Positions 8,879 through 64,000 of a DNA stretch of 64,000 nucleotides are shown piece after piece. The DNA is from an uncultured Acidimicrobiaceae bacterium. Lineage in GTDB: Bacteria > Actinomycetota > Acidimicrobiia > Acidimicrobiales > RAAP-2. Within the stretch, counting starts at the first letter, position 1, and the number at the start of each line of letters is the position of its first letter. The notes under the pieces were generated by a model. That model was given only the letters and a program-made list of their open reading frames with translations, was not told the DNA's origin and ran no database searches. The stretch covers positions 44,837 to 108,836 of the forward strand of contig CAVWKX010000002.1 in NCBI GenBank assembly GCA_963755655.1, given 5' to 3'. The translations under genes were made by a program, and so were the position numbers.

Positions 8879-8879
8879 T

Positions 8880-14818: not shown

Positions 14819-15692
14819 CGTTGGCCCCCAGTGCGGCACCCCTGCCAGGTACGGTGGCCGGGTTAAGTGAGCCCGCCCTTTCGGCCAGTGAGGTCACCGT
14901 CCGCTTCGGCGGGCTGACTGCACTCTCGGGGGTGAGTGTCGAGGTCCAGCCCGGGAGCATCGCGGGCCTGGTCGGGCCGAACGGCGCCGGGAAATCGACG
15001 CTCCTCGCTGTGCTGTCCGGCCTCCTGCGGCCCAATGGGGGACGTGTGCGCCTCCACGGCGAAGACGTCACGACGACGTCGTGCCGGGGCGCGCCAAGAA
15101 GGGCTTGGCCCGGACGTTCCAGCAGCCCGAGCTCTTCCTGGGACTCACCGTGCGCGAGCACCTGGTGTTGGCGCACAGGGCCCGAGTCGCCCCGCAGCGG
15201 CTGTGGCGCGACATGCTCGACCCCCGCTCGTTGCTGCCACCCTCCAAGGACGAGAACGAACGGGTGGACGCCCTGCTCGAGCAGCTGCACCTGACCAGGG
15301 TGGAGAAGGCGCCGGTGGCGGCCCTGCCTCTGGGCATTCTGCGCCTCGTCGAGGTGGGTCGGGCGCTGGCCAGCGAACCCAGCGTGCTTCTGCTCGACGA
15401 GCCGCTGTCGGGACTCGACATCAAGGCGTCGGAGAACCTGCTGGCCGTGTTCCGCCAGATCGTCGATCAACCGGGGCGCCAGGTCTCGCTCATCATGGTG
15501 GAGCACGACGTGGCGGCGGTGCTCTCGCTCTCCGACATCGTGTTTGTCCTCGACTTCGGCGAGCGCATTGCCGTCGGGACCCCGGAGGTGATCCGCAACG
15601 ATCCTGCGGTGCGGGCCGCGTACCTGGGCGACACCGAGGCGGCATCAGGTCCGCCCGCCGAGCCGGCCCCGGCCGACGGAGACTCGGCATGA
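14815..15692 (+). pseudogene. livG: LivG-type ABC ATPase interrupted by one frameshift near 15075-15085
   Basis: Track ORF 14815..15294 carries Walker A GPNGAGKST. Track ORF 15081..15692 continues with GLARTFQQPELF...LLLDEPLSGL in another frame. Confidence 0.8.
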
Positions 15693-16438
15693 CCGAATCC
15701 CTCTTGACCGTCGAGAACCTCGACGTCCGCTATGGATCGTCCCGCGCGCTGTTCGGCGTGTCCCTCGCTGTCGAACCGGGCACCGTGCTGGCCGTGCTGG
15801 GCGCCAACGGCGCCGGCAAGAGCACGTTGGCGCGCGCCGTCTCCGGGTTGGTCCCGCCGACTGCGGGACGGGTCGTCTTCGACGGCCAGGACATCACCGG
15901 ACAACCGGCGCATCGCATCAGAAAGCTCGGATTGACGTACATCCCCGAGGGCCGCGGCATCTTCCCGGGGCTGACCGTCGTCGACAACCTGCGCATGGCT
16001 GTCGGACAGGAGAAGCGGCACGAGCGCGCCGCGGCCATCGATCGCGCCATCGAGCGCTTCCCGGTGCTCGGGGAACGCCGGACGCAGCGCGCCGGGAGCC
16101 TCTCCGGTGGCGAGCAGCAGATGCTGGCCCTGGCCCGGGCGCTGGCCGTGTCACCGAAGCTCGTCATCGCTGACGAGATGTCGCTCGGCCTGGCCCCGAT
16201 CGTCACCGAGTCGGTCTTCCAGGCCCTGGAGGAGGCCCGCCGGACGGGCATCACGATCGTGCTCACCGAGCAGTTCGTGCACCGGGCACTGGCCATGGCG
16301 GATGCCTGTGTCGTCCTGATGCGCGGACAAGTTGGTTGGTACGGCCCGGCCTCGGAGGCCGGGCAGGAGGTCATCGACCGGTATCTCGGCGATGCCGAGC
16401 CGGCGACCCCCGCCCATATGGGCAGCCAGCTACCGTAA
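15689..16438 (+). CDS. livF: LivF-type ABC ATPase
   Basis: ATG 15689 overlaps the livG stop (ATGA). Motifs GANGAGKST, LSGGEQQML and VIADEMSLGLAP. Confidence 0.9.
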   Translation: MTESLLTVENLDVRYGSSRALFGVSLAVEPGTVLAVLGANGAGKSTLARAVSGLVPPTAGRVVFDGQDITGQPAHRIRKLGLTYIPEGRGIFPGLTVVDNLRMAVGQEKRHERAAAIDRAIERFPVLGERRTQRAGSLSGGEQQMLALARALAVSPKLVIADEMSLGLAPIVTESVFQALEEARRTGITIVLTEQFVHRALAMADACVVLMRGQVGWYGPASEAGQEVIDRYLGDAEPATPAHMGSQLP

Positions 16439-16459
16439 CGACTGTTCGGTGCACTGAGC

Positions 16460-16485
16460 GGGCGCTCGCCCGTGGCGGCGAGCCC
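16460..16485. terminator. GC-rich stem-loop between convergent livF and the enoyl-CoA hydratase gene
   Basis: GGG(C)GCTCGCC-cgtggc-GGCGAGCCC gives about 9 bp with one bulge. Confidence 0.35.
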
Positions 16486-16491
16486 TCACGG

Positions 16492-17334
16492 TCAGCTCCT
16501 CAACGGAGGCGCCACTCCGGGCGGACCGACTCGAAGGCCTCTTGGCCCTCGGCGATGTCCTCGAACCGCGTTACCGAGCGCGACGTAGGTCGAGACCTGA
16601 GAGAGGGCCTCGCGGCGCCCCACCTCGTGGGTCATCCAGATCGCCCGCAAGGTGCCCTGAATCGCCAGGACCGGTGCCGACGCGATCGCCCGCGCCACCC
16701 ACATGGCCCTCTCCATGAGTTCGGCCGCCGGCACGACCTCCGAGACGAGACCCATCTGGTGAGCTCGCTCCGCCGACATGCGCTCCCAGGCCCCGAGGAG
16801 CATGAGTCGAAGGACTTCGCCCAGTGGCAGTTTCTGCAAGAGGTGGGTCGACTCGAAACCCGCCACCATCCCGTAGGTCACGTGGGGATCGAAGAAGGTC
16901 GCATGCTCAGCCGCCACAATGACGTCCGACTCGCCCAGCAGGTAGAGCGCCCCACCACAGGCCATGCCGTTCACGGCGGTGACGATCGGCTTCCAGAGAT
17001 CGTTGGTCTTCGGGTTGATGTTGATCCCGGGGTCGTTGTACATGAACGGCGTCGAGACCGGCCCCGTCGACCCGTGCATTCTGTCGACGTTCTCGTCGTT
17101 GAAGAGGTAGTCATCGGCAATCCCCTCGTCCCGATCGATCCCCGAGCAGAAGGCCTTCTGGCCGGCCCCGGTGAGGACGACCACCCGGACATCGTCGTTC
17201 GAGCGGAGGCCTCGCCACACGTCCCGAAGCTCCGCCTGCATCTGTTGGTTGAATGCGTTGAGCACTTCCGGACGATTCAGGGTGACGACGGCAACGCCGT
17301 CATTCTCTTCGTACAGCAGCGTCTCGAACTTCAT
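16492..17334 (-). CDS. enoyl-CoA hydratase; the C-terminal ~20 codons appear frameshifted
   Basis: ATG 17334 (MKFETLLYEENDGVAVVTLNRPEVLNAF). Near 16560 the family-typical tail FEDIAEGQEAFESVRPEWRLR* lies in another frame and ends at 16500. Confidence 0.8.
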   Translation of the reverse strand: MKFETLLYEENDGVAVVTLNRPEVLNAFNQQMQAELRDVWRGLRSNDDVRVVVLTGAGQKAFCSGIDRDEGIADDYLFNDENVDRMHGSTGPVSTPFMYNDPGININPKTNDLWKPIVTAVNGMACGGALYLLGESDVIVAAEHATFFDPHVTYGMVAGFESTHLLQKLPLGEVLRLMLLGAWERMSAERAHQMGLVSEVVPAAELMERAMWVARAIASAPVLAIQGTLRAIWMTHEVGRREALSQVSTYVALGNAVRGHRRGPRGLRVGPPGVAPPLRS

Positions 17335-17354
17335 GCAAGGCTCCCTTTTTCCCT

Positions 17355-17376: not shown

Positions 17377-17444
17377 CCGGGACAGCGCGGGCACCACACT
17401 AGCGACGGCGTCTCACCAGCTCCGGTGGGATGGGATGGGATGCG

Positions 17445-18118: not shown

Positions 18119-19287
18119 TCACAGGGCAGTCCGTGCGTCCATCGGGCCCTTGGCACCGCTCGGGAGCGGTCGCACCATCGCATCGACGGAGAAGGAAGCC
18201 ACCAGCGCGCCGTCGAGGTCGTAGACCCGGTTCTCGGCGTGGGTCGTCCCGGCCCCGGCGAATGTCGAGTGGTGGTGATAGAGCAGCCAGTCGTCGACCT
18301 TGACCGGACCGTAGAACGACAAGCTGATGCTGTTGATCGCCATGGAGAGCGTGCGGTGCGCCTGATCCTGGCTGACGCCTTCGTGCGGCCGCAAGGCAGC
18401 GGCGATCGACATGTGGCCCGTGAACTGCGCCAGCAGGCCGGCGTGGAGGGCGGGGTCGTCCGGGACGTGGCGGAAGCGAACCCAGGCGTCGACGGTGGGC
18501 GGCCCGACCGGCCCGTCCTGTTCGCTCGAATAGCCGCCGTCGACCACTCTGATGTCGCGCCCGGTCACTGCCCATATCGTACGGGGGGCACTCGTAGGGT
18601 CCCGGGCACGTCCGGAGCATCGGCGGCGTGGCGGACGACGTCGTCTGAGGGCGTGTCGAGGAGCACCGTGCCCGCGGCGCAGAGACGCCCTCCTTGAAGC
18701 ACCTGGACCGAGAGGGCGGCGAACGTGCGACCCGGAGCTGAGCTCGACTGCAACTCGAACTGGAGCGGCTGACGGGCATCGGCCGACGCGCAACAACATT
18801 ATGGTGGCCGACATGACCCGGCGCCCCGGGGCATGCCGGCTGGCGGCGACGATGGCCTGCCCGAGCATCTGGCTGCCCTCGACGACGGGTCGTCGCTCGT
18901 CGCTCCGGGCGACACCGAAGAAGGTGAGCCCGTCGTCAGCGGGACGGACATCCATGACGTCGACGAGATGCGCGGCATCGCCCCAGGTCGGGAACCGCTT
19001 CACCGTTACGTCGTGGGCAGCATCGCCCTCGACCTCGTCGCTGACCTCAATCCGTACCCGGTCCTGATCGAAGGCCGCGTGGTCGGCCAGCTCCGGGAGC
19101 GGCTTCGGCCGGCAGGACGCAGCCGGACCAAGCCCTCCGAGACTCCTCGAAGTCGATGTCGGCGAAGGGGAAAGTAGAGGACGGGGAGCGCGCCGGGAGC
19201 CTCGGCACACAGGCACCGATCGGACTGCGCCACGATCCGTCCGTCCCACCAGGCGCTCGCTCGGTACGGGTAGCGATCGATCTTCAT
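18119..19287 (-). pseudogene. DUF427-like N-terminus fused to acyl-CoA thioesterase II (TesB-like), at least 3 frameshifts
   Basis: Pieces lie in three frames: MKIDRYPYRASAWWDGRIVAQSD...VLYFP, then FADIDFEES, then RFPTWGDAAHL...VVEGSQMLGQAIVAA. Segment GRTFAALSVQVLQGGRL appears in ORF 18565..18753. The C-terminal double-hotdog tail is in ORF 18119..19249. Confidence 0.7.
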
Positions 19288-20411: not shown

Positions 20412-23027
20412 GTGACCCGCGGTCCTGATCCTCGGAGGTCCCCACCCGGGCACCGACCGACCAGTCTCGCGGTCGAGCACCTCGGGGCGGCAGTCCTCGG
20501 ACTGGGCGATCGGCTGCCGCGGTTGTCGTGGCAACTGCCTCCTGGCGCGACCAAGCAGGAGGCGTACACCGTCGAGATCGACGGCCGCTCCTCCGACCGG
20601 GTGGAATCCGATGCCTGCGTTCTGCGTCCCCTGGCCCGGGGAATCCATTGACGTCCGCGGCAACGGATCGTCTGGCGGGTAAAGGTCTGGACCGACGGCA
20701 CCGAGAGCGACTGGTCCTCTTCGGCCTGGTTCGAGACCGGACTGCTCGACCGCGGCGGACTGGACCGCTCGTTTCATCGAGCCCGTGGAGACCGAGCGCT
20801 CGGCCCACCTGCTGCGCCACACGTTCGGGCTCGGCGTACCACCTGCGCAGGCCAGGCTCTACGCCACGGCGCACGGGATCTACGAGACGTTCCTCAACGG
20901 CCGGCGCGTCGGCGACGTGGAACTGGCGCCAGGTTTCACCAGTTACCCAACCACGCTCCACGTCCAGGCATACGACGTCGGAGCGCTGCTGGTGCGGGGC
21001 GACAACATCTGGGAGGTCGTCCTCTCGGACGGCTGGTGGCGCGGCCGAGTCGGCTTCTTCCAGTCCGTCGACGGCTTCGGCAGCACGCTCGCTTTTCTCG
21101 GGCAGCTCCACGCGGACGAAATCGTCGTCGCCACCGGCGGCGATTGGGAGTCCTCCAAGGGAGCGCTGCTGGCCGCCGACCTCATGGCAGGGCAGTTCGA
21201 GGACCACCGGACCCGGCCCGAGGCCTGGCAGCCCGTGACGGTCGCCGACCACGACCTGGGCTCCCTGGCCTACTCCCCGGCACCGCCGACGCGCCGGGTA
21301 CAGGAGCTCCGACCCGTTGCCGTCACCCGAGCCAGTCCCGATCGCCAGGTGGTCGACCTCGGGCAGAACATCAACGGCTGGCTGCGCCTGAGCGACGTGG
21401 GGCAGCGCGACACGGAGCTGACGATCGTGCTACGGCGAGGCCCTCGACCCGTCGGGCGACGTCACGCAAGACCACCTTTCGCCCGACCTCTTCGGAAATG
21501 GCATGCAGGTCGGCATGGTCGATCGAGTCGTCGCGGCCGGCAGCCCTGGGGAGGTATTCGAACCGCGGCAGACGACACACGGCTTCCAGTACGCCGCGCA
21601 TCGAGGGCCACTCCGGTCGACTCACGCCCGACGACGTCACCGGCGTGGTCGTCCACACGGACCTGCAGCGCACGGGCTGGTTCCGCTGCAGCGACGATCG
21701 GCTCAACCGGCTGCACGACATCACGGAGTGGTCGTTCCGCGACAACGCCTGCGAGATCCCAACCGACTGTCCCCAGCGCGAGCGGGCCGGCTGGACCGGA
21801 GACTGGCAGTTGTTCGTGCCCGACCGGGGCCTTCCTCTACGACGTCGCGGGCTTCTCCGTCAAATGGCTGCGGGACGTGGCGGCGGAACAGCTCGACGAT
21901 GGGCGGATCACCAACTACGCGCCGGACCCGCTACGGCAACGGGTGGGGAGTACGGTGCGATGGCCGCAGATGCAGGGGTCGTCCGGCTGGGGTGACGCCA
22001 TCGTGATGGTCCCGTGGGAGCTCTGGCGTGCCTACGGCGACCACGACGTGCTGGCCGAATTCTGGCCATCCATGGTCGTCGTGGGTGGATTTCGCGGCGC
22101 GGGCGGCGCGCACGCACCGTCACCCGAGCCGCGAGGCGGCTCGCCCGGAGCCGGCGCCGCACGAAGCGTTCATCTGGGATGGGACCTACCACTGGGGCGA
22201 GTGGCTCGAGCCGGGTGCGCAGCCCCACGACCACGTGCAAGCTGGACCAGGGCTCCGTCGCCACTGCGTTCCTGCACCACTCCGCCGCATTGGGCGCCCG
22301 CATCGGCCGCCTGCTCGGCCATGACGCTGAGGCAAGGCGCTTCGACGACCTGGCGGCGAACGTCTTGGAAGCGTGGCGGACGGAGTTCATCGGACCGGGC
22401 GGCGCCCTCACTCCGGACACCCAGGCCAACCACGTCCGCGCCCTGGCCTTCGGCCTCGTTCCCGACGAGTTGCGCGCGCGGACAGCGGAGCGGCTGGTGG
22501 AGCTGATCCGCGCCGCCGGCACCCATCTCGGCACGGGGTTCCTCGCCACGCCCTACCTCTTGCCGGTGCTGGCGGACACCGATCACCTCGACGTCGCGTA
22601 CGAGTTGCTGTTGCAGGACACGCCGCCTTCGTGGCTGGCCATGGTCGAACGTGGGGCGACGACGGTTTGGGAGTCGTGGGAAGGCATCGACGAGGACGGA
22701 CGCCCGCACGACTCGCTGAACCACTACAGCAAGGGGGCAGTGATCTCCTTCCTGCACAATTACACCGCCGGCATCGCTGTCCTCGACGGCCAACCCGCCT
22801 ACCGCCGCTTTCGTGTCGAGCCCCGTCCCGGGGGCGGGATCACCTGGGCCGAGGCGGTGCACGACTCGCCCTACGGGCGGATCGAGTCTTCCTGGCACGG
22901 CGATGGGTCGAGGTTTCACCTCACGGTGACCGCACCGCCAGGGACGGTGGCCGAGGTCGTGTTGCCCGACGGCTCCCTCCGTGAGCAGGGACCGGGCACC
23001 GTGACCTATGAATCCCGGCTCACTTGA
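20412..23027 (+). pseudogene. alpha-L-rhamnosidase (GH78), at least 9 frame changes
   Basis: Family-typical blocks are spread over all three + frames: PRLSWQLP, VKVWTDGTESDWSSSAWFETGLL, LYATAHGIYETFLNGRRVGD, IPTDCPQRERAGWTGDW, GWGDAIVMVPWELW, HLGTGFLATPYLLPVL, TTVWESWEG. Confidence 0.8.
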
Positions 23028-23131: not shown

Positions 23132-24269
23132 ATGTCGAAGACGCCATCATTTCGGTGGACGGGCACGTCAGGGCCTCACGGAGCGACTACCGGAACTACG
23201 TCGAGAAGCGATTCCTCGACGCCTTCGATGACTGGGCCAGGGCGGAAGAGGCAGCGGGCGCGCCCGAGAGCGGCAATCTGAGCGCGGGACTGGACCCGAC
23301 ATCGCAGTGGGATTCGGAACTCCGCCTGAAGGACATGGAGAGCCAGGGCGTTGTTGCCGAGGTGCTCTTCCCGAACGGACTGCCCTTCCAGGCGAGGCCG
23401 GCGGACGACGTGGGCTCGTTCTCGGACCCCGAGATAGATCGGCAGGCCCGTCTCGCTTACAACCGCTGGCTGGCCGACTTCTGCGCGCAGACGCCGGGTC
23501 GCCGTGCCGGGCAGGCGTTGATTTCGTTCGACGACGTCGATCTGGCCGTGAGGGACATTCACTGGGCGAAGGAGCAGGGCCTGGGCGGCGTCATGATGCC
23601 CGCCCTGCTTCCCGGTGGAACCTTCTTCTTCGATCCCGCGCTCGATCCGGTTTGGTCCGCGTGCGTGGACGTCGACCTCCCGATCAGCCAACACGGTGGG
23701 ACGGGTGCGCCGACCTACGGCCCTCCGGGCTTCGGCGCCATCATGACATTGGCCCTCGAGCACTCCTTCTACTCGGGCCGCTCGCTCTGGCAGATGATCC
23801 TCGGTGGGGTGTTCGAGCGCTTCCCGGATCTCCGGGTGGCGTTCGTCGAGACCGAGGCCGATTGGATCGCCCCGGTCATCCGGAAATTGGACCGCCGCCT
23901 CAGCTGGGGCGACGACTGGACCGGGTGGGCCGCCACCATGCAGCGCATGCGGCAGTTCGCCGGTCGGCCCGCGACTACTGGGCGGCCAATTGCTTCGCCG
24001 GGATCTCGCCCTTCACCGACGAGCAGGTTCCCCTGCAGGAACTTGCCCGGCCGAGCGCCGAGTACGACGCATTCGCCATCGGTTGTGACAACGCCATGTT
24101 CGGCGTGGACTACCCGCACTTCGAGTCGGTGTTCCCCGAGACCAAGGTCGCAGGTGGACGCGCTGGTGTCGCATCCGTCCATCACGGCCGAGGTGTCCCG
24201 GAAAATCATGTGCGGGAATGCGGCGCGCTGTACGGCTTCGACGTGGATGCCCTGCGACCTGCATGCTGA
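23132..24269 (+). pseudogene. amidohydrolase-2 family protein, about 4 frameshifts
   Basis: ATG 23132 follows AAGGGGG, then the frame shifts within the first codons to AIISVDGHV. Later shifts occur near 23960, 24150 and 24225. The VDYPHFES motif is present. Confidence 0.75.
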
Positions 24270-24310
24270 GCGAGTCGGCTTCGACATCGAGTCCTCCGGG
24301 CGGTCCTCGT

Positions 24311-25569: not shown

Positions 25570-25629
25570 TGGGGTCCTTCCTGCGCGGCGGAGATTCGAA
25601 GAGAGCAGTGTGACACCCCAGAACACCCT

Positions 25630-25645
25630 ATGCAAAGCTTTGCAT
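25630..25645. promoter_or_regulatory. perfect 16-bp palindrome ATGCAAAGCTTTGCAT (LacI-family operator type)
   Basis: Lies 61 nt upstream of the beta-glucosidase start. The 14-bp core is identical to 56429-56442. Confidence 0.55.
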
Positions 25646-25797
25646 TCACGTCATTGCACGGATCGTAGCTGGGCTCGTGGCAGTCGGATGGAACCAAGTT
25701 CGAGCGGACATCAAAGTGTGTCTTCCTGTGCGACGGAGGCCTCCGACGAGCGCGCCGGTCGGAGCGCACTTCTGGGGCGACCGTCTAGCGTGCGCCC

Positions 25798-26307: not shown

Positions 26308-26323
26308 GGAGCCTGGAAACTAG

Positions 26324-26340
26324 TTTGACGTTGAAGTAAT

Positions 26341-26342
<2 letters not shown>
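26324..26342. promoter_or_regulatory. TTTGACGTTGAAGT motif abutting a TAATAT -10-like hexamer
   Basis: 12 of 14 positions are identical to 56500-56513. TAATAT (26337-42) lies 7 nt before the second ATG (26350). Confidence 0.4.
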
Positions 26343-27978
<1,636 letters not shown>

Positions 27979-51733: not shown

Positions 51734-54483
<2,750 letters not shown>

Positions 54484-54503
54484 GCTGTCTCCCCGTGCGT
54501 CGG

Positions 54504-55022
54504 CTAGCCGTGGTCCGGGCGAGGGGTCAGCAGTCCCAGCACCTCGTCCGCGATGGATTCCGGGGCGCGGCCGTCGGTGTCGATGATCGCGGTGGCCACC
54601 TGCCGATAGAGCTCGGAACGCATCTCGGCCATGGCGGCGAAGGTCTCGGCCGGTCGGTCTTCGAGAAGCGGGCGGTGATCGCCCGGGCGGACCCGTCCGG
54701 CCAACGTCGACGGGCTGGTTCGGAGCCAGACGACGAGGCTGTCGGCGAGGGCGGCGCGGACGAGGGGATCGAGCACCACCCCTCCCGGCGCAGCCAGCAC
54801 CGTCGGTGTGTCCTCCCGCAGGGTCTCGAGCACCACCTCTGATTCGAGGTACCGGTAAGCCGCCTCGCCACCCTCCTCCCAGAGCTCGCGGACGGTCTTG
54901 TTCATGCGCACGGTGATGACGGTGTCCACGTCCACCAGCGCCCGTCCGGTGCGCTGCGCCACGAGCGCGCCCACGGTTGACTTTCCCGATCCCATCAGAC
55001 CCACCAGCACCACGGTCTTCAC
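54504..55022 (-). CDS. shikimate-kinase-like P-loop kinase
   Basis: GLMGSGKSTVG Walker A plus VDVDTVI...ELWEEGGEAAYRYLESEV, as in AroK. Sits between uxaC and uidA. Confidence 0.75.
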   Translation of the reverse strand: MKTVVLVGLMGSGKSTVGALVAQRTGRALVDVDTVITVRMNKTVRELWEEGGEAAYRYLESEVVLETLREDTPTVLAAPGGVVLDPLVRAALADSLVVWLRTSPSTLAGRVRPGDHRPLLEDRPAETFAAMAEMRSELYRQVATAIIDTDGRAPESIADEVLGLLTPRPDHG

Positions 55023-55024
55023 CC

Positions 55025-56425
55025 TCAGACCCTAAAGGCCTGGCGCGCCAGGTTGTAGGCGAGGTCTTCGGCGGTCTCGACCGCCTCCTCTTCCTGCAGG
55101 CGGTGCTCGGCCACCAGTCCCGCCAGGTATCCGGCTTGCAGCCTTCGGGCCACGTCGTGACGGGCGGGGATGCTCAAAAGGGATCGGGCATCGTCGTTGA
55201 ACCCGACCGTGTTGGCGAACCCTGCCGTTTCGACGACCGATCGATAAAACCGCCCGATGCCTTCCGGGCTGTCGAAGAACCACCACGGTGGCCCGAGACG
55301 CAGCGCCGGGTAGTGGCCGGCGAGGGGCGCCAGCTCGCGCCCGTAGGTGGATTCGTCGAGCGTGTACACGACAACGGTCAGTCCGGGCTCGTTGCCGAAC
55401 CGGTCGAGCAGCGGCTTGAGGCCACCCACGTAGTCGGCCCTCGTGGGGATGTCGGCGCCCTGGTCCGGGCCGAAACGGGCCGCCACGGCGGGATTGTGAT
55501 CCCGCCACGCACCGGCATGGATCTGCAGCACGAGCCCGTCGTCGAGGCTCATGGCTGCCATCTCGACCAACATCTGGCCCCGGAACAGTTCGGAGTCACC
55601 CGGCTGTCCCTGTCCGGCCGTGATGCGCGCGAACAGATCTGCTGCGCCCCGAGACGACAGGTCGGCCGTGGCCGGTGTGGGGTGCCCGTGGTCCGAGGCG
55701 GTCGCCCCCGCCGCGACGAAGGCGGCGCGCCGGCTCCGCAATGCGTCGAGATAGCCGGCCCAGCTGGACGTGTCCGACCCGGTGAGCTGGCCCAGCGCGG
55801 CGACGCGGGAGTGGAAGCCGGGCCGGTCGGGGTCGACCACGTCGTCGGGGCGGAAGGTGGGCACGACCCGCCCTGACCAACCGGACTGGCGGAGCTGCGC
55901 GTGCGACGCGAGCGGGTCGAGGGCGCCATCGGTCGTGGCCAGGAACTCGATCCCGAAGCGCTCGAAGAGCGCACGCGGCCGGAAGTCCGCTTGCGTCAGT
56001 CGGGCCGAGATCTCGTCGTACAGGACGTCGGCGTTCTTCTCGTCGAGCCGGTCCTGCACGTCGAAGACCTCTTGGAGCGTGTGATCGAGCCAGAGCTTCG
56101 ACGGAGTGTTCCGAAAGAGAGCGATGTGCGTCGCGAGCTCGCGCCAAATCCGCCGGCCGTCGGTGACCGCCGGCGTGCCGTCGAGTGGTTGCACCCCCAG
56201 CGTCTCGAGGGGTACGCCCTGGCTGTAGAGCATGCGCAGGACGTAGTGATCCTTGGTCACCAGCTCGGTCGCTGGGCTGTCGAGGGCCACGTCACCGGCG
56301 AACGCCGCCGGGTCGCAGTGGCCATGGGGGCTCACGATGGGAAGCGCCTTCGTCCCTTCGTACAGTGCGCGGGCCATCCGGCGGACGCCGGGGTCGGCCG
56401 GAAGCAGGCGGTCCGGGTGGAGCAT
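55025..56425 (-). CDS. uxaC: glucuronate (uronate) isomerase
   Basis: 466 aa from ATG 56425, intact. IVSPHGHCDP (HxH) and FNDDARSLLSIP blocks. The track ORF extension to 57046 is run-in. Confidence 0.9.
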   Translation of the reverse strand: MLHPDRLLPADPGVRRMARALYEGTKALPIVSPHGHCDPAAFAGDVALDSPATELVTKDHYVLRMLYSQGVPLETLGVQPLDGTPAVTDGRRIWRELATHIALFRNTPSKLWLDHTLQEVFDVQDRLDEKNADVLYDEISARLTQADFRPRALFERFGIEFLATTDGALDPLASHAQLRQSGWSGRVVPTFRPDDVVDPDRPGFHSRVAALGQLTGSDTSSWAGYLDALRSRRAAFVAAGATASDHGHPTPATADLSSRGAADLFARITAGQGQPGDSELFRGQMLVEMAAMSLDDGLVLQIHAGAWRDHNPAVAARFGPDQGADIPTRADYVGGLKPLLDRFGNEPGLTVVVYTLDESTYGRELAPLAGHYPALRLGPPWWFFDSPEGIGRFYRSVVETAGFANTVGFNDDARSLLSIPARHDVARRLQAGYLAGLVAEHRLQEEEAVETAEDLAYNLARQAFRV

Positions 56426-56427
56426 CG

Positions 56428-56443
56428 ATGCAAAGCTTTGCAG
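56428..56443. promoter_or_regulatory. palindrome ATGCAAAGCTTTGCAG (LacI-family operator type)
   Basis: Starts 3 nt upstream of the uxaC start codon. The core TGCAAAGCTTTGCA is identical to 25631-25644. Confidence 0.55.
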
Positions 56444-56495
56444 GGCCGGCTGCCTCGTGCCACGTCGTCCCGTTGTGCCCGCAGGCATTGTCCTG

Positions 56496-56513
56496 TAATA
56501 TTGACGTCGAAGT
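56496..56513. promoter_or_regulatory. TAATAT hexamer followed by a TTGACGTCGAAGT motif
   Basis: Lies upstream of amidohydrolase 56580. Shares 12 of 14 positions with 26324-26337. Confidence 0.4.
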
Positions 56514-56579
56514 TGAAAACCGTCCGCGGGCCGCGCCTCGAACGTCGGCGCTGCGGTCCACGTCATCTCGGAGGTGGCC

Positions 56580-57782
56580 ATGCCAAAGCCCATTGTCGAC
56601 TTTCCCGTCTTCGACGCCGACAACCACATGTACGAGACGACGGATGCCTTCACGAAGTTCCTGCCGCCCCAGTACTCGGGGCTGATCAAGTACGTAGAGG
56701 TCAACGGCCGCACCAAAATCGCGGTGCGCAACGTCATCTCCGAGTACATCCCGAACCCGACGTTCAACGTGGTCGGCCGGCCCGGAGCCTCGGAGGAGCT
56801 CTTCAAGCACGGCAATCCGGAGGGCAAGACGCGCCGCGAGCTCATGGGAGAGCCGATCCGCTCGCCCGAAGCGTTCTTCTCGCCCGAGCCGCGCCTCGCC
56901 CTGATGGACGAGCTTGGGCTCGACCGCGCCCTCATGTGGCCGACGCTGGCGAGCCTTCTCGAGGAGCGCCTCGCCGACGACCCCATCGCCACGCACATTG
57001 TCGTGCACGCGCTGAACGAGTGGATGCACGAGCACTGGACCTTCAATTACGAGGGCCGCATCTTCGCGTCCCCGGTCATCACGCTGCCCATCGTCGACAA
57101 GGCGATCGAGGAACTCGAATGGGTGGTCGAGCGCGGGGCCAAGCTCATTCTGATTCGACCTGCTCCCGTTCCCGGCTACCGCGGCTACCGGTCGTTCGCT
57201 CTCCCCGAATTCGACCCCTTCTGGCAGCGGGTGACCGAGCTCGACATCACGGTCGGCATGCACGCGTCGGACGACGGCCTGACCCGCTACTACAACCAGT
57301 GGGAGGGGAACTATGGCGGCGAGCACCTCCCGTTCGCCGGGCAGTCCGCGTTCATGAACATCGCGCATACCCAAGGTCGAGGGATCTTCGACACGGTGGC
57401 GTCGCTGATCGGCCACGGCTTGCTCAACCGGTTCCCGACTCTGCGCATCCTGCCTGTCGAGAACGGCGCGGCATGGGTACGCCCGCTCATCGACGCTCTC
57501 GGCCGCTCCTACGAGCACGAGCCGGCGCTGTTCGCCGAGGACCCGATCATGGTGCTCAAGCGGAACATCTGGATCCACCCCTTCCACGAGGAGGACCCGC
57601 GCGGCCTCATCGACCTGGTCGGTGTGGACCGTGTCGTGTTCGGGTCGGACTACCCGCACATTGAGGGGATGTCTGAGCCGCTGTCCTACGTCGACGAGCT
57701 CGAGGGCCTGTCCCACGACGACATGGCGAAGGTCATGGGCGGCAATCTTGCCGATGTCATGAAGATGCCCTTCGCCGCCTGA
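56580..57782 (+). CDS. amidohydrolase-2 family protein (FDADNH-type), paralog of 9020..10219
   Basis: ATG 56580 lies 5 nt after GGAGG. MPKPIVDFPVFDADNHMYE...GSDYPHIEG, colinear with the 9020 gene. Confidence 0.85.
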   Translation: MPKPIVDFPVFDADNHMYETTDAFTKFLPPQYSGLIKYVEVNGRTKIAVRNVISEYIPNPTFNVVGRPGASEELFKHGNPEGKTRRELMGEPIRSPEAFFSPEPRLALMDELGLDRALMWPTLASLLEERLADDPIATHIVVHALNEWMHEHWTFNYEGRIFASPVITLPIVDKAIEELEWVVERGAKLILIRPAPVPGYRGYRSFALPEFDPFWQRVTELDITVGMHASDDGLTRYYNQWEGNYGGEHLPFAGQSAFMNIAHTQGRGIFDTVASLIGHGLLNRFPTLRILPVENGAAWVRPLIDALGRSYEHEPALFAEDPIMVLKRNIWIHPFHEEDPRGLIDLVGVDRVVFGSDYPHIEGMSEPLSYVDELEGLSHDDMAKVMGGNLADVMKMPFAA

Positions 57783-57790
57783 GCGTCTTT

Positions 57791-57818
57791 GGTGTCGATG
57801 CCGCGTGGTGTCGATGCC
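57791..57818. repeat. tandem direct repeat GGTGTCGATGCC x2 with a 4-nt spacer
   Basis: Exact 12-mers at 57791-57802 and 57807-57818, just after the amidohydrolase stop. Confidence 0.6.
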
Positions 57819-57976
57819 ATATGCCGGCTTTGCCGGGGGTCATGCTGCCCGTGGTCAACCTGTAGTGGTGCCGTGGTGCAGAGGTTGCGGCTGTACTCAG
57901 TCCGCTCCCAGGCTGATTTCTGCAACGCTTGTGCGCGTCGGATGCAGCACGGGCGAGCGAGGCGGAGCGAGAAGCA

Positions 57977-58606
57977 GTGGCGAATGCGACGGGGCGGCGG
58001 CTCTCCTGGCTCACCAAAGGCATCGCCGTCGTCCTGGGCGCGCTACTGGCGGGAGCAGGGGCCTACGCCGCGACGAACTGGGTCGTCGGGTTGACGAGTA
58101 ACTCCTCGGGTGAGGCCCAGTCGGCCACCATCTCCAACGTGACCATCAGCGCGGTGGCCAGCCCCACCGCGACCAACCTTCTGTACCCGGGTGGGACCGG
58201 TGACGTGGTGGTGACGATCAGCAACGGCAACCCGTACCCCGTGACCATCACGGCGCTGCAGCTGCCGACGAGCACCACCTACGCCACGGGCTACACGACG
58301 AGTGCCTTGAGCACGACGCAGGCCGGTTGCTCGGCCTCGTCGCCGAGCACTGTGGTGTGGAACTTCTCGACGACGACGAGCGGGAGTAGCCACACGCTGA
58401 CGACGCCGCTCACCGTGGCCGCCAGTGGCAAGGCCAACAACCCGCTCACCGTCACCTTGACCAACGACGCCGCCATGGGCTCGTCCGCACCGCTGGCCTG
58501 TGCCGACACCTACTTCTCCATGCCGTCGTTGACGGGCATCACCGCCACCGGCGGCGGAACGGGCACCGCGACCACGAGTCCTGCCACCGACGGCTGGACG
58601 AGCTGA
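57977..58606 (+). CDS. exported or membrane-anchored Thr/Ser-rich protein
   Basis: N-terminal anchor GIAVVLGALLAGAGAYAATNW, then beta-rich T/S-rich sequence with 2 Cys. The start is uncertain (track TTG 57929, GTG 57977). Confidence 0.5.
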   Translation: MANATGRRLSWLTKGIAVVLGALLAGAGAYAATNWVVGLTSNSSGEAQSATISNVTISAVASPTATNLLYPGGTGDVVVTISNGNPYPVTITALQLPTSTTYATGYTTSALSTTQAGCSASSPSTVVWNFSTTTSGSSHTLTTPLTVAASGKANNPLTVTLTNDAAMGSSAPLACADTYFSMPSLTGITATGGGTGTATTSPATDGWTS

Positions 58607-58614
58607 CTGCGCCC

Positions 58615-61152
58615 TCAGACGTAGTCGCTGCGGCGCATCCAGACCAGCGTGGCCCAGCCCCAGATCGGGGGCAGGTAGGCCGTGCACACACGTTCGATGA
58701 AGACGGCCGCCACCGCTTCATTCTGCGGGATCCCGGCCGCGGTGAGGCCGGCGATCAGCCCCACCTCGACGACACCGGCTCCGCCGGGCACCGGGGCGGC
58801 GCCGCCGATCATGGCGGCCAGCGTCAGCACCACAATGAGGGTGGCAAAGCTGGCGTGCTCGCCCACCGTGTGCAACGACGCCCCGAGGCACAGCGCGATC
58901 AAGACCTGGCTGCCCAGCGACCCGCCCAGCACGTAGGCGATCTTCCGGGGCTCCACCGCGATGGCCTTGACGTCCTTCCAGATCGTGACGAGGTGGGGCC
59001 GGGCCTTCTCCGTCGCCAGCCGCCGGACCCGGGGAACGAGGGTCACCACCGCAAGTAAAAGGGCGATGGCCAGGACGGCGAGGATGATGATCCAGACGAT
59101 GCCCTGGTGCCCGGCACCGTCGTTCGACGTCGGTTCGTGGAAGTCGCCGATGGCGAACGGAAGGCAGACCAGGAACAACACGCCCTTCACGACCCAGCTC
59201 GCGGTTCCGGCGATGGCCCCCGAGCTGATGGCGGCAGGCGCGTCGAGCCCCTGCCGTTGGAAGAAGCGCACGCGCACGGCGAACACGGCGGCGTCACCGC
59301 CGACGAACGAGGTGAACATGTTGGAGGCCTCGAGTGCCACGCAGCGCCCGAAGGGCAGCGGCCCCATGACCGCTCCGGTGAGGGCCCAGGCGCCCGTGAC
59401 CACGGGGAGCTGCGCCAGCACGAAGGCCCCTGCCACCCAGCCCCAGCTGGCACCGCGGATGACGCTCAGCGAGCCCGAAGCCTCGGTGAGGACGCCGATA
59501 ATCAGCCACAGGCCGACCAGGCTGCCGACGACCATGAGCAGGTTGGGCCAACTGATTCGCTTTGCCTCGACCAGCTTCGGGACTTCGACACCCGCTGCGG
59601 TGGCGAGGGACCCGCGCAGCGTCTTGAGCAGGCCTTTCTGCGACCGGGCCATGCGCTCGGTCTCGGGATCGAGCGCAGAACGCTGGAGCCGGGTGAGCAC
59701 GGCCTCGATGGTCTCGGTGTCGAGCACCCGGCAGGCCGAGGACACGGCCCGGTCGACGCCGACCACGACGGCTGCGGTCGCCACCGCGGCGGCCAGGTCG
59801 CGATCGGTGCGCATGGGCGGCGCCGACGACGAGGCGCGTCGGAAATCGCGGAGTAGTGGACCGTGGGCCGTGGTGAGCACGGTCTCGGGACTCAGCGCGC
59901 CGTGCGAGATCCCGGCCTTGCGGAGCACCAGCACGGAGCGGAGGAAGCCGTCGACATCGTCGTCGCCGACTTCGTCGGCCTGCAGTTGGCAGAACCGACG
60001 CCCGTCGGGCAGGCGCGTGACGAGGGCGGCATCGTGCGCCGGTCCGCAGCGGCCCGCCGCGACGATCTCGGGGACCAGGGCCCCGGCGTGGGCCGCCAGG
60101 AACGTGAGATAGGCCTCGTGTTCCACCTGCTGGAGCCGGTTGATGATGAGGGTGGGGCCGGAGTCGCGATAGATGCAGAACCGCCAGACCTTGCGCAGCC
60201 ACTGCGCGTCGGCGGCATCGCGTCCGTAGACCGCCAACTCGACCTGGTGGCCGTCCGCATCTGTGCCGGCGAAGGCCGCCACCCCCCATTCCTGGCGGGG
60301 CATGGAACTGAGTCCATGCACCTCGACCTGCAGGTCGCGCACGGACTCGGTCACCTCCACGGCCGACGGCAATCCGTTGGGCGCGCCCATGGCGAGATGA
60401 CAGGCGGCCGCCGTGCCCCAGCCCACGACCACGGCGGCGATGACGCCGAGCGGCAGTCCGTAGCCGCCGACCACGGCACACAACGCCGCAACCGCCACCG
60501 CGCCGGTCACGAGTCGGTGCATGGGGCGGCTCAGATAGGGCAGGCCCGCCAGGGCGACGGCGGTAGCCACGGCCAGCTGCACAATGGGGAAGCGCGGGTT
60601 GAAACCGTCGAAGGCTGCCATGGGAGGACGTCCGCCGGAGGAACCCAGCAGGGCGTCGAGCAGAAGGCAGACGGCGAGCGCGGCCAAGCCGGCCACGGCC
60701 ATTTGGCGCACCGCCCTCAGCCGCGGCACGAGCAGGCCGACGAGGACCAGCGGCGCGATGACCCCGATGGATCCCACGAACCACAGTGCGGTGATCAACC
60801 ATTGGATGCCCGAGGGTGCGGGAGTGATGAGCTCGGTGACATGGATCTCCACCGAGGTGTTCGCCTGCACCAGCGGGATGCAGATCACCACGAGCACCGT
60901 GGCGAGTCCGACGCGTACGGCGTCGGAGGCGCGTCGCCGTGACGTCCCGCCTCCGTGGGGCCCGAGGAGGAGCGAGCGGATCCGCTGGTTCCACGTCGTG
61001 GAGCCGACGTCGTCGGGGACGGACTTCACGCCGGCGTCGGCGGTCGCGGTGGAACCCATGATCTTCACGTCGGAAGGTCGTGCCGCGGTCTTGCGCCCGA
61101 GGATGGGAAGAACGGGGGATGCACGACCGCAATCTTGGCCGGTCCAGCCCAT
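58615..61152 (-). CDS. large polytopic membrane protein: N-terminal TM bundle, central kinase-like soluble domain, C-terminal flippase-like (LPG-synthase TM / UPF0104) domain
   Basis: 845-aa intact ORF. The C-terminal half resembles the MprF-type flippase TM region. ATG 61059 is an alternative start. Confidence 0.75.
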   Translation of the reverse strand: MGWTGQDCGRASPVLPILGRKTAARPSDVKIMGSTATADAGVKSVPDDVGSTTWNQRIRSLLLGPHGGGTSRRRASDAVRVGLATVLVVICIPLVQANTSVEIHVTELITPAPSGIQWLITALWFVGSIGVIAPLVLVGLLVPRLRAVRQMAVAGLAALAVCLLLDALLGSSGGRPPMAAFDGFNPRFPIVQLAVATAVALAGLPYLSRPMHRLVTGAVAVAALCAVVGGYGLPLGVIAAVVVGWGTAAACHLAMGAPNGLPSAVEVTESVRDLQVEVHGLSSMPRQEWGVAAFAGTDADGHQVELAVYGRDAADAQWLRKVWRFCIYRDSGPTLIINRLQQVEHEAYLTFLAAHAGALVPEIVAAGRCGPAHDAALVTRLPDGRRFCQLQADEVGDDDVDGFLRSVLVLRKAGISHGALSPETVLTTAHGPLLRDFRRASSSAPPMRTDRDLAAAVATAAVVVGVDRAVSSACRVLDTETIEAVLTRLQRSALDPETERMARSQKGLLKTLRGSLATAAGVEVPKLVEAKRISWPNLLMVVGSLVGLWLIIGVLTEASGSLSVIRGASWGWVAGAFVLAQLPVVTGAWALTGAVMGPLPFGRCVALEASNMFTSFVGGDAAVFAVRVRFFQRQGLDAPAAISSGAIAGTASWVVKGVLFLVCLPFAIGDFHEPTSNDGAGHQGIVWIIILAVLAIALLLAVVTLVPRVRRLATEKARPHLVTIWKDVKAIAVEPRKIAYVLGGSLGSQVLIALCLGASLHTVGEHASFATLIVVLTLAAMIGGAAPVPGGAGVVEVGLIAGLTAAGIPQNEAVAAVFIERVCTAYLPPIWGWATLVWMRRSDYV

Positions 61153-61188
61153 CCCGCCAGGGACGAAGGCTAAAGACTGTAAATATGA

Positions 61189-61217
61189 TTGACTTAGTCA
61201 GGTTTAGCGTCTAGCCT
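61189..61217 (+). promoter_or_regulatory. sigma-70-like promoter giving a leaderless CDO mRNA
   Basis: TTGACT (61189-94), a 17-nt spacer, TAGCCT (61212-17), then 7 nt to ATG 61225. Confidence 0.5.
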
Positions 61218-61224
61218 CTCCCAG

Positions 61225-61804
61225 ATGGCGCCCCCGGGTCCCCCTCTCCTCGCCAGAGCGGGCGCGAGCCCGGTCACGGTCCCCGAGCGCCGTTCCCGCC
61301 TCGACCCGCGGGAGGTGGCCAACCATCTCGCTCCTTCCGTGCGCTGGCCGGGTGCGCTCGACACCCGGCGCCGCGCTTGGCGGCTGATGGCCCGCACCCC
61401 CGACTTCGACGCCTGGCTGATCGCCTGGCCCAAGGGCGGGAAGGTCGAGCTCCACGATCACGGCGTGTCCACCGGAGCAGTGAGCGTCATCCGCGGGGCG
61501 TTGGTCGAGGCGGTACCCCGGCGCGACGATGCGGGACACCTCACCTTGGTCCGCCGCGAGTTGCAGGCTGGCGCCACGCTCGGCTTCGGTGTGGGACACG
61601 TGCACGATGTCACCAACGAGTCGGACACGCATGCCCTCAGCCTCCACGTCTACAGTCCAGCTCTGACCTCCATGACTTACTACGAACTGGCGGGAGACGA
61701 ACTTGGTCGCGCGCGACGTGGCGTGGTCCACCGACGGCAGCGGCGAATTCGAGCACGAGCGCGACGTGAGGACCGTCGGCCCGGAGGCGGCGGCCGCCCG
61801 TTGA
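61225..61804 (+). CDS. cysteine dioxygenase type I-like cupin; the C-terminal tail appears frameshifted near 61700
   Basis: WPKGGKVELHDHG...GHVHDVTNES cupin His motifs. The protein-like tail LVARDVAWSTDGSGEFEHERDV...* ends at TGA 61802-04 and overlaps a TTG start (TTGA). Confidence 0.65.
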
Positions 61805-62198
61805 CAGCGCACAGCGCCGACGACCTGCTGGCCCGGGCGCGAGCCGGACATCCGGCGGGTCGAGCCGGACGAGCTCGAGCGACTCCATGCCGACGGCGGC
61901 CTGGTCGTCGACATCCGGCCCGCCGCCCAGCGGGCTACCGAGGGTGAGCTCGGCTTCGGCCTCATCGTCGAGCGCAACGTGCTCGAGTGGCGCTTCGACC
62001 TGACCGGGGAGCCACACCCTGCCGGAGGTCAGCAGCTACGAACAAAGCGTGGTCGTGGTGTGCTCGGAGGGCTATGCCTCGAGCCTGGCCGCAGCGTCGC
62101 TACGCCAGCTTGGCTTCAGCAGAGCCGGCGATCTGCGCGGCGGCTATCGTGGCCTGGCGCCGCTGGCGCGACCGGGCGCCCGCGCGCCGACAGCGTGA
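61801..62198 (+). pseudogene. rhodanese-like sulfurtransferase, about 2 frameshifts
   Basis: ADDLLARARAG, IRRVEPDELERLHADGGLVVDIRP, ERNVLEWRFD and the active-site block VVVCSEGYASSLAAASL lie in different frames. Confidence 0.6.
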
Positions 62199-62265: not shown

Positions 62266-62911
62266 TCACGCCCGCGTGAAGCGCGGCGCCGCCTCACCGT
62301 GCAGGCGCCCCGGCGGCAGCAGGCGCCCGCAGGCGACGAGGGCCAAGGACCTGGGCCGACCCCCCACCACGGCACCGGTGCCCGACGACCACTTCAGGTC
62401 GTCCGCCCGTAGCGCCACGTCGCTGAGATCGACCCCGAACAGGTTCGGCCCATCGTCGGCTTCCACGAGCGCGAGGACCGTGCGGAGGCACGGCTCGGGC
62501 ACCCGCCGCGCCAAGCGGCACCGCCTCGGTGATGTCGAGCGCGTGGATCACGCAATGGGTCAGTGCGGCCTCGGCGCCACCACCCGGTGGCTCCCATCCG
62601 TGCAAGACCGGGGAGCGGAGGTCGGCGAGCAGGGTGCCGTCGGCAGCGCGCCGTCGCGTGCCGCAACGGCGTCGGACAGGCGCGTGAAGTCGCCGCCGGC
62701 GCGCCTCGAGCTCCGCCATGAAGGCCGGACCGTCGTAGCGCGCCGGCATGGTCACGTGGGCCACGACTTCGCGGGTGCGCCACTCCTCGCACAGCGACGG
62801 CGCGTCCCAGACGTCCGGCCCGGCGGCCTCCAACAGGTCGGCCAGCGCGCCGTACTCGTCGGCGATGGTCCGGCGTCGCAGTGCGTCTGCGGCGGCACCG
62901 GCGCCGCTCAT
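62266..62911 (-). pseudogene. mycothiol-dependent maleylpyruvate-isomerase-type (DinB/MDMPI N-terminal) protein, frameshifted
   Basis: PSLCEEWRTREVVAHV and LTHCVIHALDITEAVP blocks. The C-terminal part is in ORF 62266..62514. Confidence 0.55.
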
Positions 62912-63376
62912 CGCGGCGACCAGCCCGCCGAGATACGCAGCGAAGCGGTCGAGCGACGAGAGGAAGCCGGCCTGGGCCTCGCGTGCCAGGAACGCCTCGG
63001 GCACATAGGTCTGATGGATCCTCACTTCGGTGCGCTCGCGGGCCGAGCGCCACGAACTCGGCGCGCACCCGCATGCCCGAGTGCGACTCGGTCCACACCA
63101 GCAGCTCGGGCGCGCGCACCTCGTCGAAGACGGCCCGGGTCGGGTACTCGCTCCCGTCGGCGTCGTTGACCATCACGGTCTCGAACACGCCGCCGGGCCG
63201 GGCGTCGACCGTGATGCGGTCGCGCGGCGCGCTGCACGCCGGCGGGTCCCCAGAAATGGGAGAGATGGTCGGGGTCGGTCATGCAGCGCGAAGACGAGCT
63301 CGCGTGGCGCGTCGAAGACCCGGCTGAAGTGCAGCTCGCCCGCGTTGCCCGTCGCAGCCCCGCCGCGCTCAGCCAC
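62908..63376 (-). pseudogene. SRPBCC/AHSA1-like protein, about 3 frameshifts
   Basis: GTG 63376 overlaps the ArsR stop. Blocks FSRVFDAPRELVF, MTDPDHLSHFWGP, VDARPGGVFETVMVNDADGSEY and VRIHQTYVPE lie in three frames. The 3' boundary is approximate. Confidence 0.6.
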
Positions 63377-63734
63377 GGGCCCGCCCGCTGGGCGCTTCCG
63401 GCGCCGGCTGCAGGTCGGCCAGCAGCGCGTCGAGCTTGTCGAAGCGCTCGTCCCACACCCGCCGGTTCGTGGTGATCCAATCCAGCGCGCCGTCGAGCGC
63501 GCCGGCCTCGAGATGGCAGGGCCGGAACTGTGCGTCGCGCCGCCGCGAGATCAGGCCGCTGCGCTCCAGCACCTTGAGGTGCTTGGAGATCCCCGGCAGC
63601 GACATGGCGAAGGGGGCGGCCAGCTCGGTCACGGTGGCGTCGCCCCGGGCCAGCCGGCTCACGATGGCGCGCCGGGTGGGGTCCGCCAGCGCGGCGAAGG
63701 CCGCATCGAGCGGGTCGTCGGTCGTGGTCGTCAC
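63369..63734 (-). CDS. ArsR/SmtB family transcriptional regulator
   Basis: LADPTRRAIVSRLA...LPGISKHLKVLERSGLI. 121 aa, intact, GTG start. Confidence 0.9.
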   Translation of the reverse strand: MTTTTDDPLDAAFAALADPTRRAIVSRLARGDATVTELAAPFAMSLPGISKHLKVLERSGLISRRRDAQFRPCHLEAGALDGALDWITTNRRVWDERFDKLDALLADLQPAPEAPSGRARG

Positions 63735-63740
63735 GCGCGT

Positions 63741-63778
63741 TATTTAACCTTAGGGTTAGTTAGCTGTCAAGTTAAATA
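63741..63778. promoter_or_regulatory. AT-rich inverted repeat TATTTAAC-n22-GTTAAATA
   Basis: Perfect 8-bp arms in the divergent ArsR/FMN-reductase intergenic region. The spacer contains TTAG repeats. Confidence 0.45.
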
Positions 63779-63866
63779 CCGGGCCGGCTCTGCTACCGTG
63801 CGTCCTGGCGGGGAGCACCGTTCCGGCCGCCGGACCACCACCAACGGGATAGAAAGGCGCAACGGC

Positions 63867-64000
63867 GTGCTCTTGCAGGTCATCACCGGGACCACCCGGG
63901 AAGGTCGGTTCAGCGAGCGGGTGGCGGCCTGGGTCATGGGCCGGCTGGGGAGCACGACGCGTTCGACGTGGAGCTGGTGACCTGCGGGACCACCCGCTCC
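63867..64000 (+). pseudogene. NADPH-dependent FMN reductase-like, 3' truncated by the window and frameshifted
   Basis: GTG 63867 gives LLQVITGTTREGRFSERVAAWV, then HDAFDVELV and DLRDHPL lie in shifted frames. Confidence 0.45.

Follow-up and report, generated by a model that had tools for sequence, protein, structure and literature searches.

Genomes in which many family-typical genes are frameshifted while the orthologs of their relatives remain intact are familiar from real decay, for instance in Mycobacterium leprae and in recently host-restricted symbionts. Among natural indels of bacteria, deletions and events in slippage-prone runs predominate, and nonsense mutations and deletions accompany them; programmed frameshifts, where known, are single and conserved and depend on a motif. 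On the technical side, the MFD long-read catalogue, from a soil MAG project, is Nanopore-only and was assembled with Flye --meta --nano-hq followed by one Medaka round, and its authors report that lower-coverage metagenome-assembled genomes (MAGs) show reduced coding density (PMC12313526). A benchmark of the same group found that a near-finished R10.4 consensus takes about 40-fold coverage and that metagenome bins of lower coverage need short-read polishing (Sereika et al. 2022, PMC9262707). The present work concerns a 64,000-nucleotide stretch of 68% GC (hereafter the window) from an uncultured soil Acidimicrobiaceae bacterium (assembly GCA_963755655.1, contig CAVWKX010000002.1), in which frameshift-aware alignment against intact orthologs resolves 78 frame shifts, each of a single base and distributed over 22 genes between positions 15086 and 63286. 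An earlier reading of the sequence (hereafter the original prediction) had described several dozen frameshifts in family-typical genes from about 15 kb on; the phenomenon was borne out and proved larger than estimated. We argue that these shifts are, with high probability, not mutations but single-base errors, for the most part spurious extra bases, that remained in the consensus of a long-read metagenome assembly (Nanopore-type, Flye-style).

The shifts were located with a purpose-written frameshift-aware protein-to-DNA aligner, by which intact orthologs of related contigs were run against the window. The ortholog references were taken from a JGI contig (L002, spanning window 11.8-18.4 kb), from ENA ERZ25039553 contig_88945 (C88945, merged from L001, L003 and L005; 2.8-47 kb), from ENA ERZ25039470 contig_89219 (L004; 26.6-47 kb), from L087 and from the majority consensus of ten relatives, with a parallel multi-reference set for 61-64 kb. 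L086 and L087 are ENA contigs that span 45-58.6 kb with 90.9% and 94.6% nucleotide identity to the window, respectively. For 62.3-63.6 kb, L020 was unreliable as a reference, being error-ridden itself with an open reading frame (ORF) that spans two genes, and multi-reference support was used instead. The affected genes, with the position of each shift (+1, extra base; -1, missing base), are as follows.

14815-15692, plus strand: livG (ABC ATPase); one -1 at 15086 (G5 to G4), also in contig_88945 and not in L002.
16503-17334, minus strand: enoyl-CoA hydratase (ECH); one +1 at 16572-16576 near the C-terminus, also in contig_88945 and not in L002.
18122-19287, minus strand: tesB-like acyl-CoA thioesterase (4HBT_3 + 4HBT_3C); five +1 (18587, 18606, 18784, 19103, 19164).
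20451-23024, plus strand: GH78 alpha-L-rhamnosidase, 12.8% divergent from contig_88945 in nucleotides; nine +1 (20625, 20644, 20657, 20751, 21430, 21599, 21819, 22078, 22241).
23132-24324, plus strand: amidohydrolase-2; five, -1 at 23145, 23966 and 24230, +1 at 24147 and 24261.
24334-25569, minus strand: GH1 beta-glucosidase; three +1 (24349, 24674, 24816).
Within 24817-32235: PBP6; one +1 at 29477.
30553-33019, plus strand: first GH2 copy; four +1 (32236, 32549, 32574, 32689), plus a genuine in-frame 12-bp loop deletion (31895-31907).
33041-34029, plus strand: galT; two +1 (33272, 33318), inside a length-variable loop.
34016-34937, plus strand: inositol monophosphatase family; one +1 at 34496.
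34930-36035, plus strand: GHMP kinase; six, +1 at 35314, 35721, 35731 and 35951, -1 at 35610 and 35648.
36082-36545, minus strand: GNAT acetyltransferase; four, +1 at 36268, 36461 and 36486, -1 at 36532.
39761-40269, minus strand: UDG; one -1 at 40226.
45344-46764, minus strand: xylB (FGGY kinase); four, +1 at 45458, 45531 and 45616, -1 at 46250.
46767-47923, minus strand: xylA (xylose-isomerase-like TIM barrel); two +1 (46872, 47725).
49065-50363, minus strand: LarA-like gene (Lar_N); +1 at 49137 and -1 at 49423, backed by 3-6 independent references.
50285-51692, minus strand: mannitol-dehydrogenase-family gene; thirteen +1, the worst-hit gene, GC about 72%.
51690-52702, plus strand: LacI-2; three +1 (52331, 52533, 52681).
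52701-54492, minus strand: second GH2 copy; one +1 at 53634.
61198-62178, plus strand: CDO_I + rhodanese gene; four +1 (61702, 61846, 62006, 62148), that at 61702 backed by 9 references including short-read ones.
62269-62900, minus strand: MDMPI_N (DinB-like) gene; +1 at 62515, -1 at 62636, +1 at 62701.
62915-63550, minus strand: AHSA1/SRPBCC gene; three +1 (63038, 63234, 63286).

All the broken genes named by the original prediction (livG, tesB-like, GH78, GH1, both GH2 copies, galT, the GHMP kinase, xylA/B, LarA-like, the mannitol-dehydrogenase family gene, LacI-2, UDG/mug, the rhodanese and SRPBCC/AHSA1) thus reappear here, and those that it held to be intact (the mutase, uxaC, the 845-aa membrane gene, LacI-1 and the PCMT homolog) are indeed uninterrupted.

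The spectrum of the events is narrow. All 78 are 1 bp in size, longer length differences occurring only in multiples of three; 67 (86%) add a base and 11 remove one. Neither large deletions nor insertion sequence (IS) elements were found among the 78 lesions, and the corrected coding sequences hold no in-frame stop codon, in agreement with what had been noticed before frame correction. About 39 of the 54 insertions that could be resolved to the base are unlike both neighbouring bases and hence lie mostly outside homopolymers. The homopolymer and GG-run clue which the original prediction had cited in favour of consensus errors consequently does not generalise, and its example at about 19170 adjoins a GGGG run and is not inside it. 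Besides these events the window shows in-frame natural length differences relative to its relatives, namely the 12-bp GH2 loop deletion at 31895-31907 and insertions of 12 bp and 24 bp near the MDMPI_N and AHSA1 genes (62876, 63337), which indicates that natural indels here come in multiples of three, unlike the artefactual 1-bp events. In the output of blastn, apparent indel clusters (e.g., 18 in 33.0-33.5 kb) turned out to arise where one multi-base length difference, in-frame in some cases, is rendered as scattered gaps, and were discarded as candidates.

Frames are stable up to about 15 kb and switch rapidly from there on, both in a plot of GC at third codon positions by frame and according to a codon-usage Viterbi decoder for which the first 15 kb served as training set. 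Single-base edits restore the frame throughout, and the reconstructed proteins align end to end with their orthologs at 77-99.8% amino acid identity. The Pfam architectures become complete in the same way: GH78 with five domains, Mannitol_dh + _C, LacI, CDO_I + rhodanese, AHSA1, MDMPI_N, 4HBT_3 + 3C, Lar_N, GH1 and AP_endonuc_2. The hop from frame to frame is directly visible in the uncorrected 1214-aa ORF at 30388-34032, where GH2_C ends in the middle of its profile (8-159 of 302) and is followed by GalT from profile position 109 of 184. Once corrected, 61198-62178 forms one ORF in which a cupin domain of the cysteine dioxygenase type (CDO_I) precedes a rhodanese domain, and relatives (L020) have the same order within a single long ORF. 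One could imagine that programmed or tolerated recoding, through ribosomal frameshifting or transcriptional slippage, restores these frames in vivo. Beyond the single-base size of each shift nothing speaks for it; genes with up to 13 shifts, the want of a common slippery motif, and sites that are not conserved in orthologs, which read in one frame, leave this idea a negligible chance.

Substitutions tell the same story as the restored frames. Counted in the corrected frame, mismatches to relatives at first, second and third codon positions amount to 31/19/102 for GH2, 14/5/54 for GalT, 10/6/55 for the GHMP kinase, 11/11/57 for the FGGY kinase and 66/51/211 for GH78, and the third position dominates in all the broken genes, which implies that their frames are under selection. 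For the mannitol-dehydrogenase gene, the comparison of the window with L087 gives 20/17/45 (p=2e-4 against uniform), the same bias as in the clean pair L024-L008 (52/44/138). Loss of codon-position bias, the mark of relaxed selection, was not seen in the affected genes. This bears directly on the second explanation put forward by the original prediction, a genuine recent pseudogenisation in which carbohydrate-utilisation and accessory genes would be lost through real frameshifts with the core 15-kb block left intact. Such decay predicts that the orthologs remain intact in relatives, as they do; the lesions are concentrated in sugar-metabolism genes, and a few shifts are common to another assembly. 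Against it stand a set of lesions made exclusively of 1-bp events, mostly insertions outside homopolymers, with no nonsense codon, large deletion or IS element among them, and a third-position bias that is undiminished even between assemblies with common insertions.

The comparison with independent assemblies weighs further on this point. The relatives' MAGs were gathered by scanning species-representative genomes with the intact 845-aa membrane protein, a scan that yielded, besides a few short-read MAGs, 'MFD...bin' MAGs of uncultured Acidimicrobiaceae whose contigs are named in Flye style, the top match being at 86% amino acid identity; the near-identical contigs are ENA assemblies with Flye-type names and the relatives are MFD long-read (Nanopore) MAGs. 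Matching the relatives' six-frame ORFs to the window by tblastn was dropped because at 68% GC every frame is open and every frame "matches", and a nucleotide multiple sequence alignment, a majority consensus and the custom aligner took its place. All 17 of the genes that the near-identical assembly L004 shares with the window are free of shifts in it, livG and ECH are intact in the JGI contig L002, and L010 and L014 have no shift either. The mannitol-dehydrogenase gene shows 0 shifts over 15.8 kb from 13 JGI contigs, whereas 15.3 kb from 11 long-read assemblies contain 30 (Fisher p=0.003), and 6 of these 11 have the gene broken. A membrane-gene control made of MAGs at 70% identity or more (L006-L085; match region about 10001-12540) was run on a trimmed core with a stricter penalty, since the full 845-aa ORF proved unsuitable, giving spurious single shifts in its non-coding N-terminal extension even in short-read contigs. 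In this control, 9 of the 35 representative MAGs from long reads and 0 of the 7 from short reads have a broken LPG-synthase-TM core, a difference in the expected direction that is not significant (p=0.31). A scan of JGI for a same-strain short-read contig over an affected block found only a relative at no more than 89% amino acid identity.

Each long-read sister assembly breaks other genes: uxaC, LacI-1 and PCMT, intact in the window, are broken in L087, L020 or contig_88945, and PBP6 is also among the genes broken in sister assemblies. The UDG shift at 40226 is private to the window, the UDG of L004 is intact, and that of contig_88945 has a different lesion. Private 1-bp indels are nonetheless alike in kind, biased toward insertions and mostly non-homopolymer, with insertion-to-deletion counts of 19:3 in the window, 26:2 in L087, 18:6 in L020 and 14:0 in L053. 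The apparent focus on carbohydrate genes therefore does not stand as a biological signal, as it follows the location of GC-rich, strain-divergent blocks and the sister assemblies are hit in uxaC, LacI-1, PCMT and PBP6 instead. With every sister long-read assembly struck in different genes, the short-read contigs in none, and a sharing of sites that does not follow a tree, we reject pseudogenisation, which appears very improbable, and retain consensus error, toward which the original prediction had leaned and which the spectrum, the selection and the independent assemblies strongly support.

Some insertions recur from one assembly to another. Five in the mannitol-dehydrogenase gene are the same in base and site in the window and L087 (50709, 50930, 51097, 51403, 51531), and three more window insertions match L087 in base and position (45531, 52331, 36268); overall, L087 covers 34 of the window's shifts and repeats about 10 of them at the same site and with the same base. 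L087 and L086 have two common insertions that are absent from the window, although the window is closer to both, and one identical insertion each is common to L087 and L020 and to L009 and L020. This sharing among assemblies of different ENA analyses is non-tree-like. Inheritance of the insertions would mean that the mannitol-dehydrogenase gene had no intact frame for as long as the window and L087 have diverged, yet its 20/17/45 bias is undiminished; together with the non-tree-like sharing, this points to a context-dependent systematic error. A search at the sites of insertion revealed no enriched sequence motif, and the bases inserted there follow base composition. A merging of single-nucleotide polymorphisms (SNPs), in which a mixed-strain consensus would retain both SNP alleles, was considered and rejected, as both alleles bear the same extra base at shared sites.

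Recurrence raises the thought that the errors, while technical, have their main cause in the DNA itself at specific sites, for instance in base or backbone modification or GC-rich secondary structure that would perturb the nanopore signal, and not in depth. The shared sites mentioned above, which also join non-sister assemblies, the steep rise of shift density with GC and the repeated breakage of the mannitol-dehydrogenase gene speak in its favour. L004 and several other long-read MAGs are error-free on the same sequences, so the site alone does not force the error; the want of an enriched motif also counts against it, and depth would better account for the structure of clean and dirty blocks. 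We regard this explanation as decidedly unlikely, and would grant a still smaller chance to the narrower proposal that the recurrent subset (50709, 50930, 51097, 51403 and 51531, together with 15086 and 16572) marks a reproducible physical property of this lineage's DNA, such as an unrecognised modification or a GC-rich structure, perturbing the nanopore signal, or else a few real strain polymorphisms. Were it true, the error map of recurrent sites would be informative on the biology of uncultured Acidimicrobiaceae.

The consensus errors are not spread evenly. The index of dispersion of the shifts is 2.85 (p=4e-13), and the probability that none of the 78 would fall in the first 15 kb is 9e-10. 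The runs without shifts are 0-15086, 24816-29477, 29477-32236, 36532-40226, 40226-45458 and 53634-61702, and the clean blocks can be described as follows.

1-15085: all genes free of shifts; identity to ENA contig_88945 about 99.9%; GC 65-68%.
24817-32235: MarR, methylmalonyl-CoA mutase, ferredoxin, PBP6, a hydrolase and the 5' two-thirds of GH2; a single shift (+1, 29477).
36546-45457: hyp108, PCMT-like, DksA/TraR, DUF2786, UDG, RDD, two RibD_C, APH and LacI-1; a single shift (-1, 40226).
53635-61701: shikimate-kinase-like gene, uxaC, amidohydrolase-2, a 225-aa gene and the 845-aa LPG-synthase-TM membrane gene; no coding shift.

The first block differs from contig_88945 by about one mismatch per kb. 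The statement of the original prediction that the first 15 kb are clean holds, with no shift in the 8 ortholog-testable genes of 2.8-15 kb and with the remainder judged by frame stability (the ORFs 14-907 and 1010-2152 and the part of ACAD left of 2820 were called intact solely from a long uninterrupted ORF in a stable frame). This block is not unique, since 24.8-32.2, 36.5-45.5 and 53.6-61.7 kb hold only 1, 1 and 0 shifts. Near-identical blocks alternate with blocks of 6-13% divergence at a scale of 2-9 kb, and consensus quality switches at or near their borders: in 500-bp bins compared with contig_88945, 43 shifts fall in the 35 bins that are at least 1% divergent and 4 in the 52 near-identical bins (Fisher 8e-9). 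Counted in 1-kb bins, shifts become monotonically denser as local GC increases: below 66% GC there are 0.10 per kb, and at 72% or more there are 3.7 (Spearman 0.61, p=7.5e-8). The block 36546-45457 is about 100% identical across three assemblies of three ENA analyses with both flanks 6-7% divergent, and has a GC of about 64% against 68-73% in its surroundings; it has the look of an island that spread recently or of a recombined block. Between PCMT and xylB, L086 has a different gene set.

It seems reasonable to propose that local read depth and sequence context set the accuracy of the consensus and would thereby produce the block pattern. Segments of lower GC that are near-identical among co-occurring strains (1-15 kb, 36.5-45.5 kb) would pool their depth and be polished cleanly, and strain-private, GC-rich segments would be covered by few reads, in which random and context-dependent errors of the basecaller and polisher may persist, at 4-6 per kb in the worst blocks. 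Several points weigh against this reading or its details. The long-read platform of the window is deduced solely from the Flye-type names of the near-identical ENA contigs and from the MFD relatives, and the low-coverage step from the block pattern rather than from read depth. Single-base insertions outside homopolymers are unlike the textbook Nanopore profile of homopolymer deletions. L004 is clean although its contig is named in the same Flye style and its ENA analysis number is a neighbouring one, which indicates that technology alone is insufficient to produce the shifts. GC and divergence are correlated with each other and hence confounded in the window; moreover, 30.5-32.2 and 53.6-61.7 kb are divergent yet clean, and GH1, only 0.2% divergent from contig_88945, nevertheless has three shifts, all within about 500 bp of a divergent block. 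Lastly, the shifts at 15086 and 16572 are common to the window and contig_88945, in a block otherwise 99.9% identical and error-free, and are absent from L002.

The shifts at 15086 (livG) and 16572 (ECH C-terminus) may be either systematic errors or real strain variants, and it could be that at most a few shifts, these two among them, are genuine. A mixed explanation follows naturally, in which the shifts are mostly artefact and a small minority (livG 15086, ECH 16572, possibly UDG 40226), in clean high-identity blocks, are real strain variants. The two assemblies that have the first two in common are independent and come from different ENA analyses, and the ECH shift alters just the last ~23 residues and keeps a full-length ORF. 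Recurrent site-specific errors are, however, shown elsewhere in these data, so that sharing is no proof; 15086 lies within a G-run, a classic systematic error site, and livG belongs to an otherwise intact liv transporter operon; as for 40226, its restriction to the window, the intact gene of L004 and the different lesion of contig_88945 speak against it. We consider such a minority of real variants unlikely, though by no means far-fetched, and hold to residual consensus error for the shifts as a whole.

A few observations concern features of the window other than the shifts. The 845-aa ORF (58615-61152) probably starts about 28 codons 3' of its first ATG, given that its homologs have 817 aa and that the upstream part aligns like non-coding DNA. 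The PCMT (protein-L-isoaspartate methyltransferase) homolog at 37319-38509 has 396 aa, with the PCMT domain at residues 13-221 and no Pfam family match in the C-terminal ~170 residues. Two short repeats vary: an intergenic hexamer repeat (ATCCGA) at 3453 has a copy number unlike that of contig_88945, and a GGGAT-type repeat at 17431-17440 differs among the window, contig_88945 and L002. No tRNA gene was found in the window.

The finding is a matter of data quality rather than of biology, and serves as a caution. Where their sequence is GC-rich and strain-private, such genomes, among them species-representative MAGs of reference taxonomies, may bear 1-6 spurious frameshifts per kb beside perfect blocks. 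Read at face value, they would give rise to pseudogene calls and carbohydrate-pathway losses that are false, to proteins split in databases and to inflated counts of novel short proteins. Because identical insertions recur in independent assemblies, the agreement of two long-read assemblies is no proof that an indel is real. Representatives of the Acidimicrobiaceae lineage in the reference taxonomy also bear such errors, as the membrane-gene core of the long-read MAGs illustrates.

Set beside the systems described at the outset, the window most resembles low-coverage Nanopore-only metagenome assemblies and the problem that the IDEEL test addresses in them (PMC9262707, PMC12313526). In both, single-base indels fragment normal genes, and the errors of the window would likewise depend on depth; the lesions are absent from the short-read contigs of relatives, and the affected relatives come from the Flye and one-round-Medaka pipeline. 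The window departs from these assemblies in that the literature stresses homopolymer indels, whereas its own events are mostly non-homopolymer insertions that track GC and strain-private blocks, and in that about a quarter to a third of them recur at the same sites in other assemblies. Strain-collapsed or chimeric long-read contigs offer another likeness, with the alternation of near-identical and 6-13% divergent blocks and a change of quality near their borders; unlike in such contigs, the mosaic of the window could equally result from genuine recombination between strains, the depth then varying for unrelated reasons. With decay of the Mycobacterium leprae type the window has in common genes that are frameshifted while the orthologs of relatives are intact, but that decay also brings nonsense codons, deletions, IS expansion, relaxed selection and a tree-like inheritance of lesions, none of which is seen in the window.

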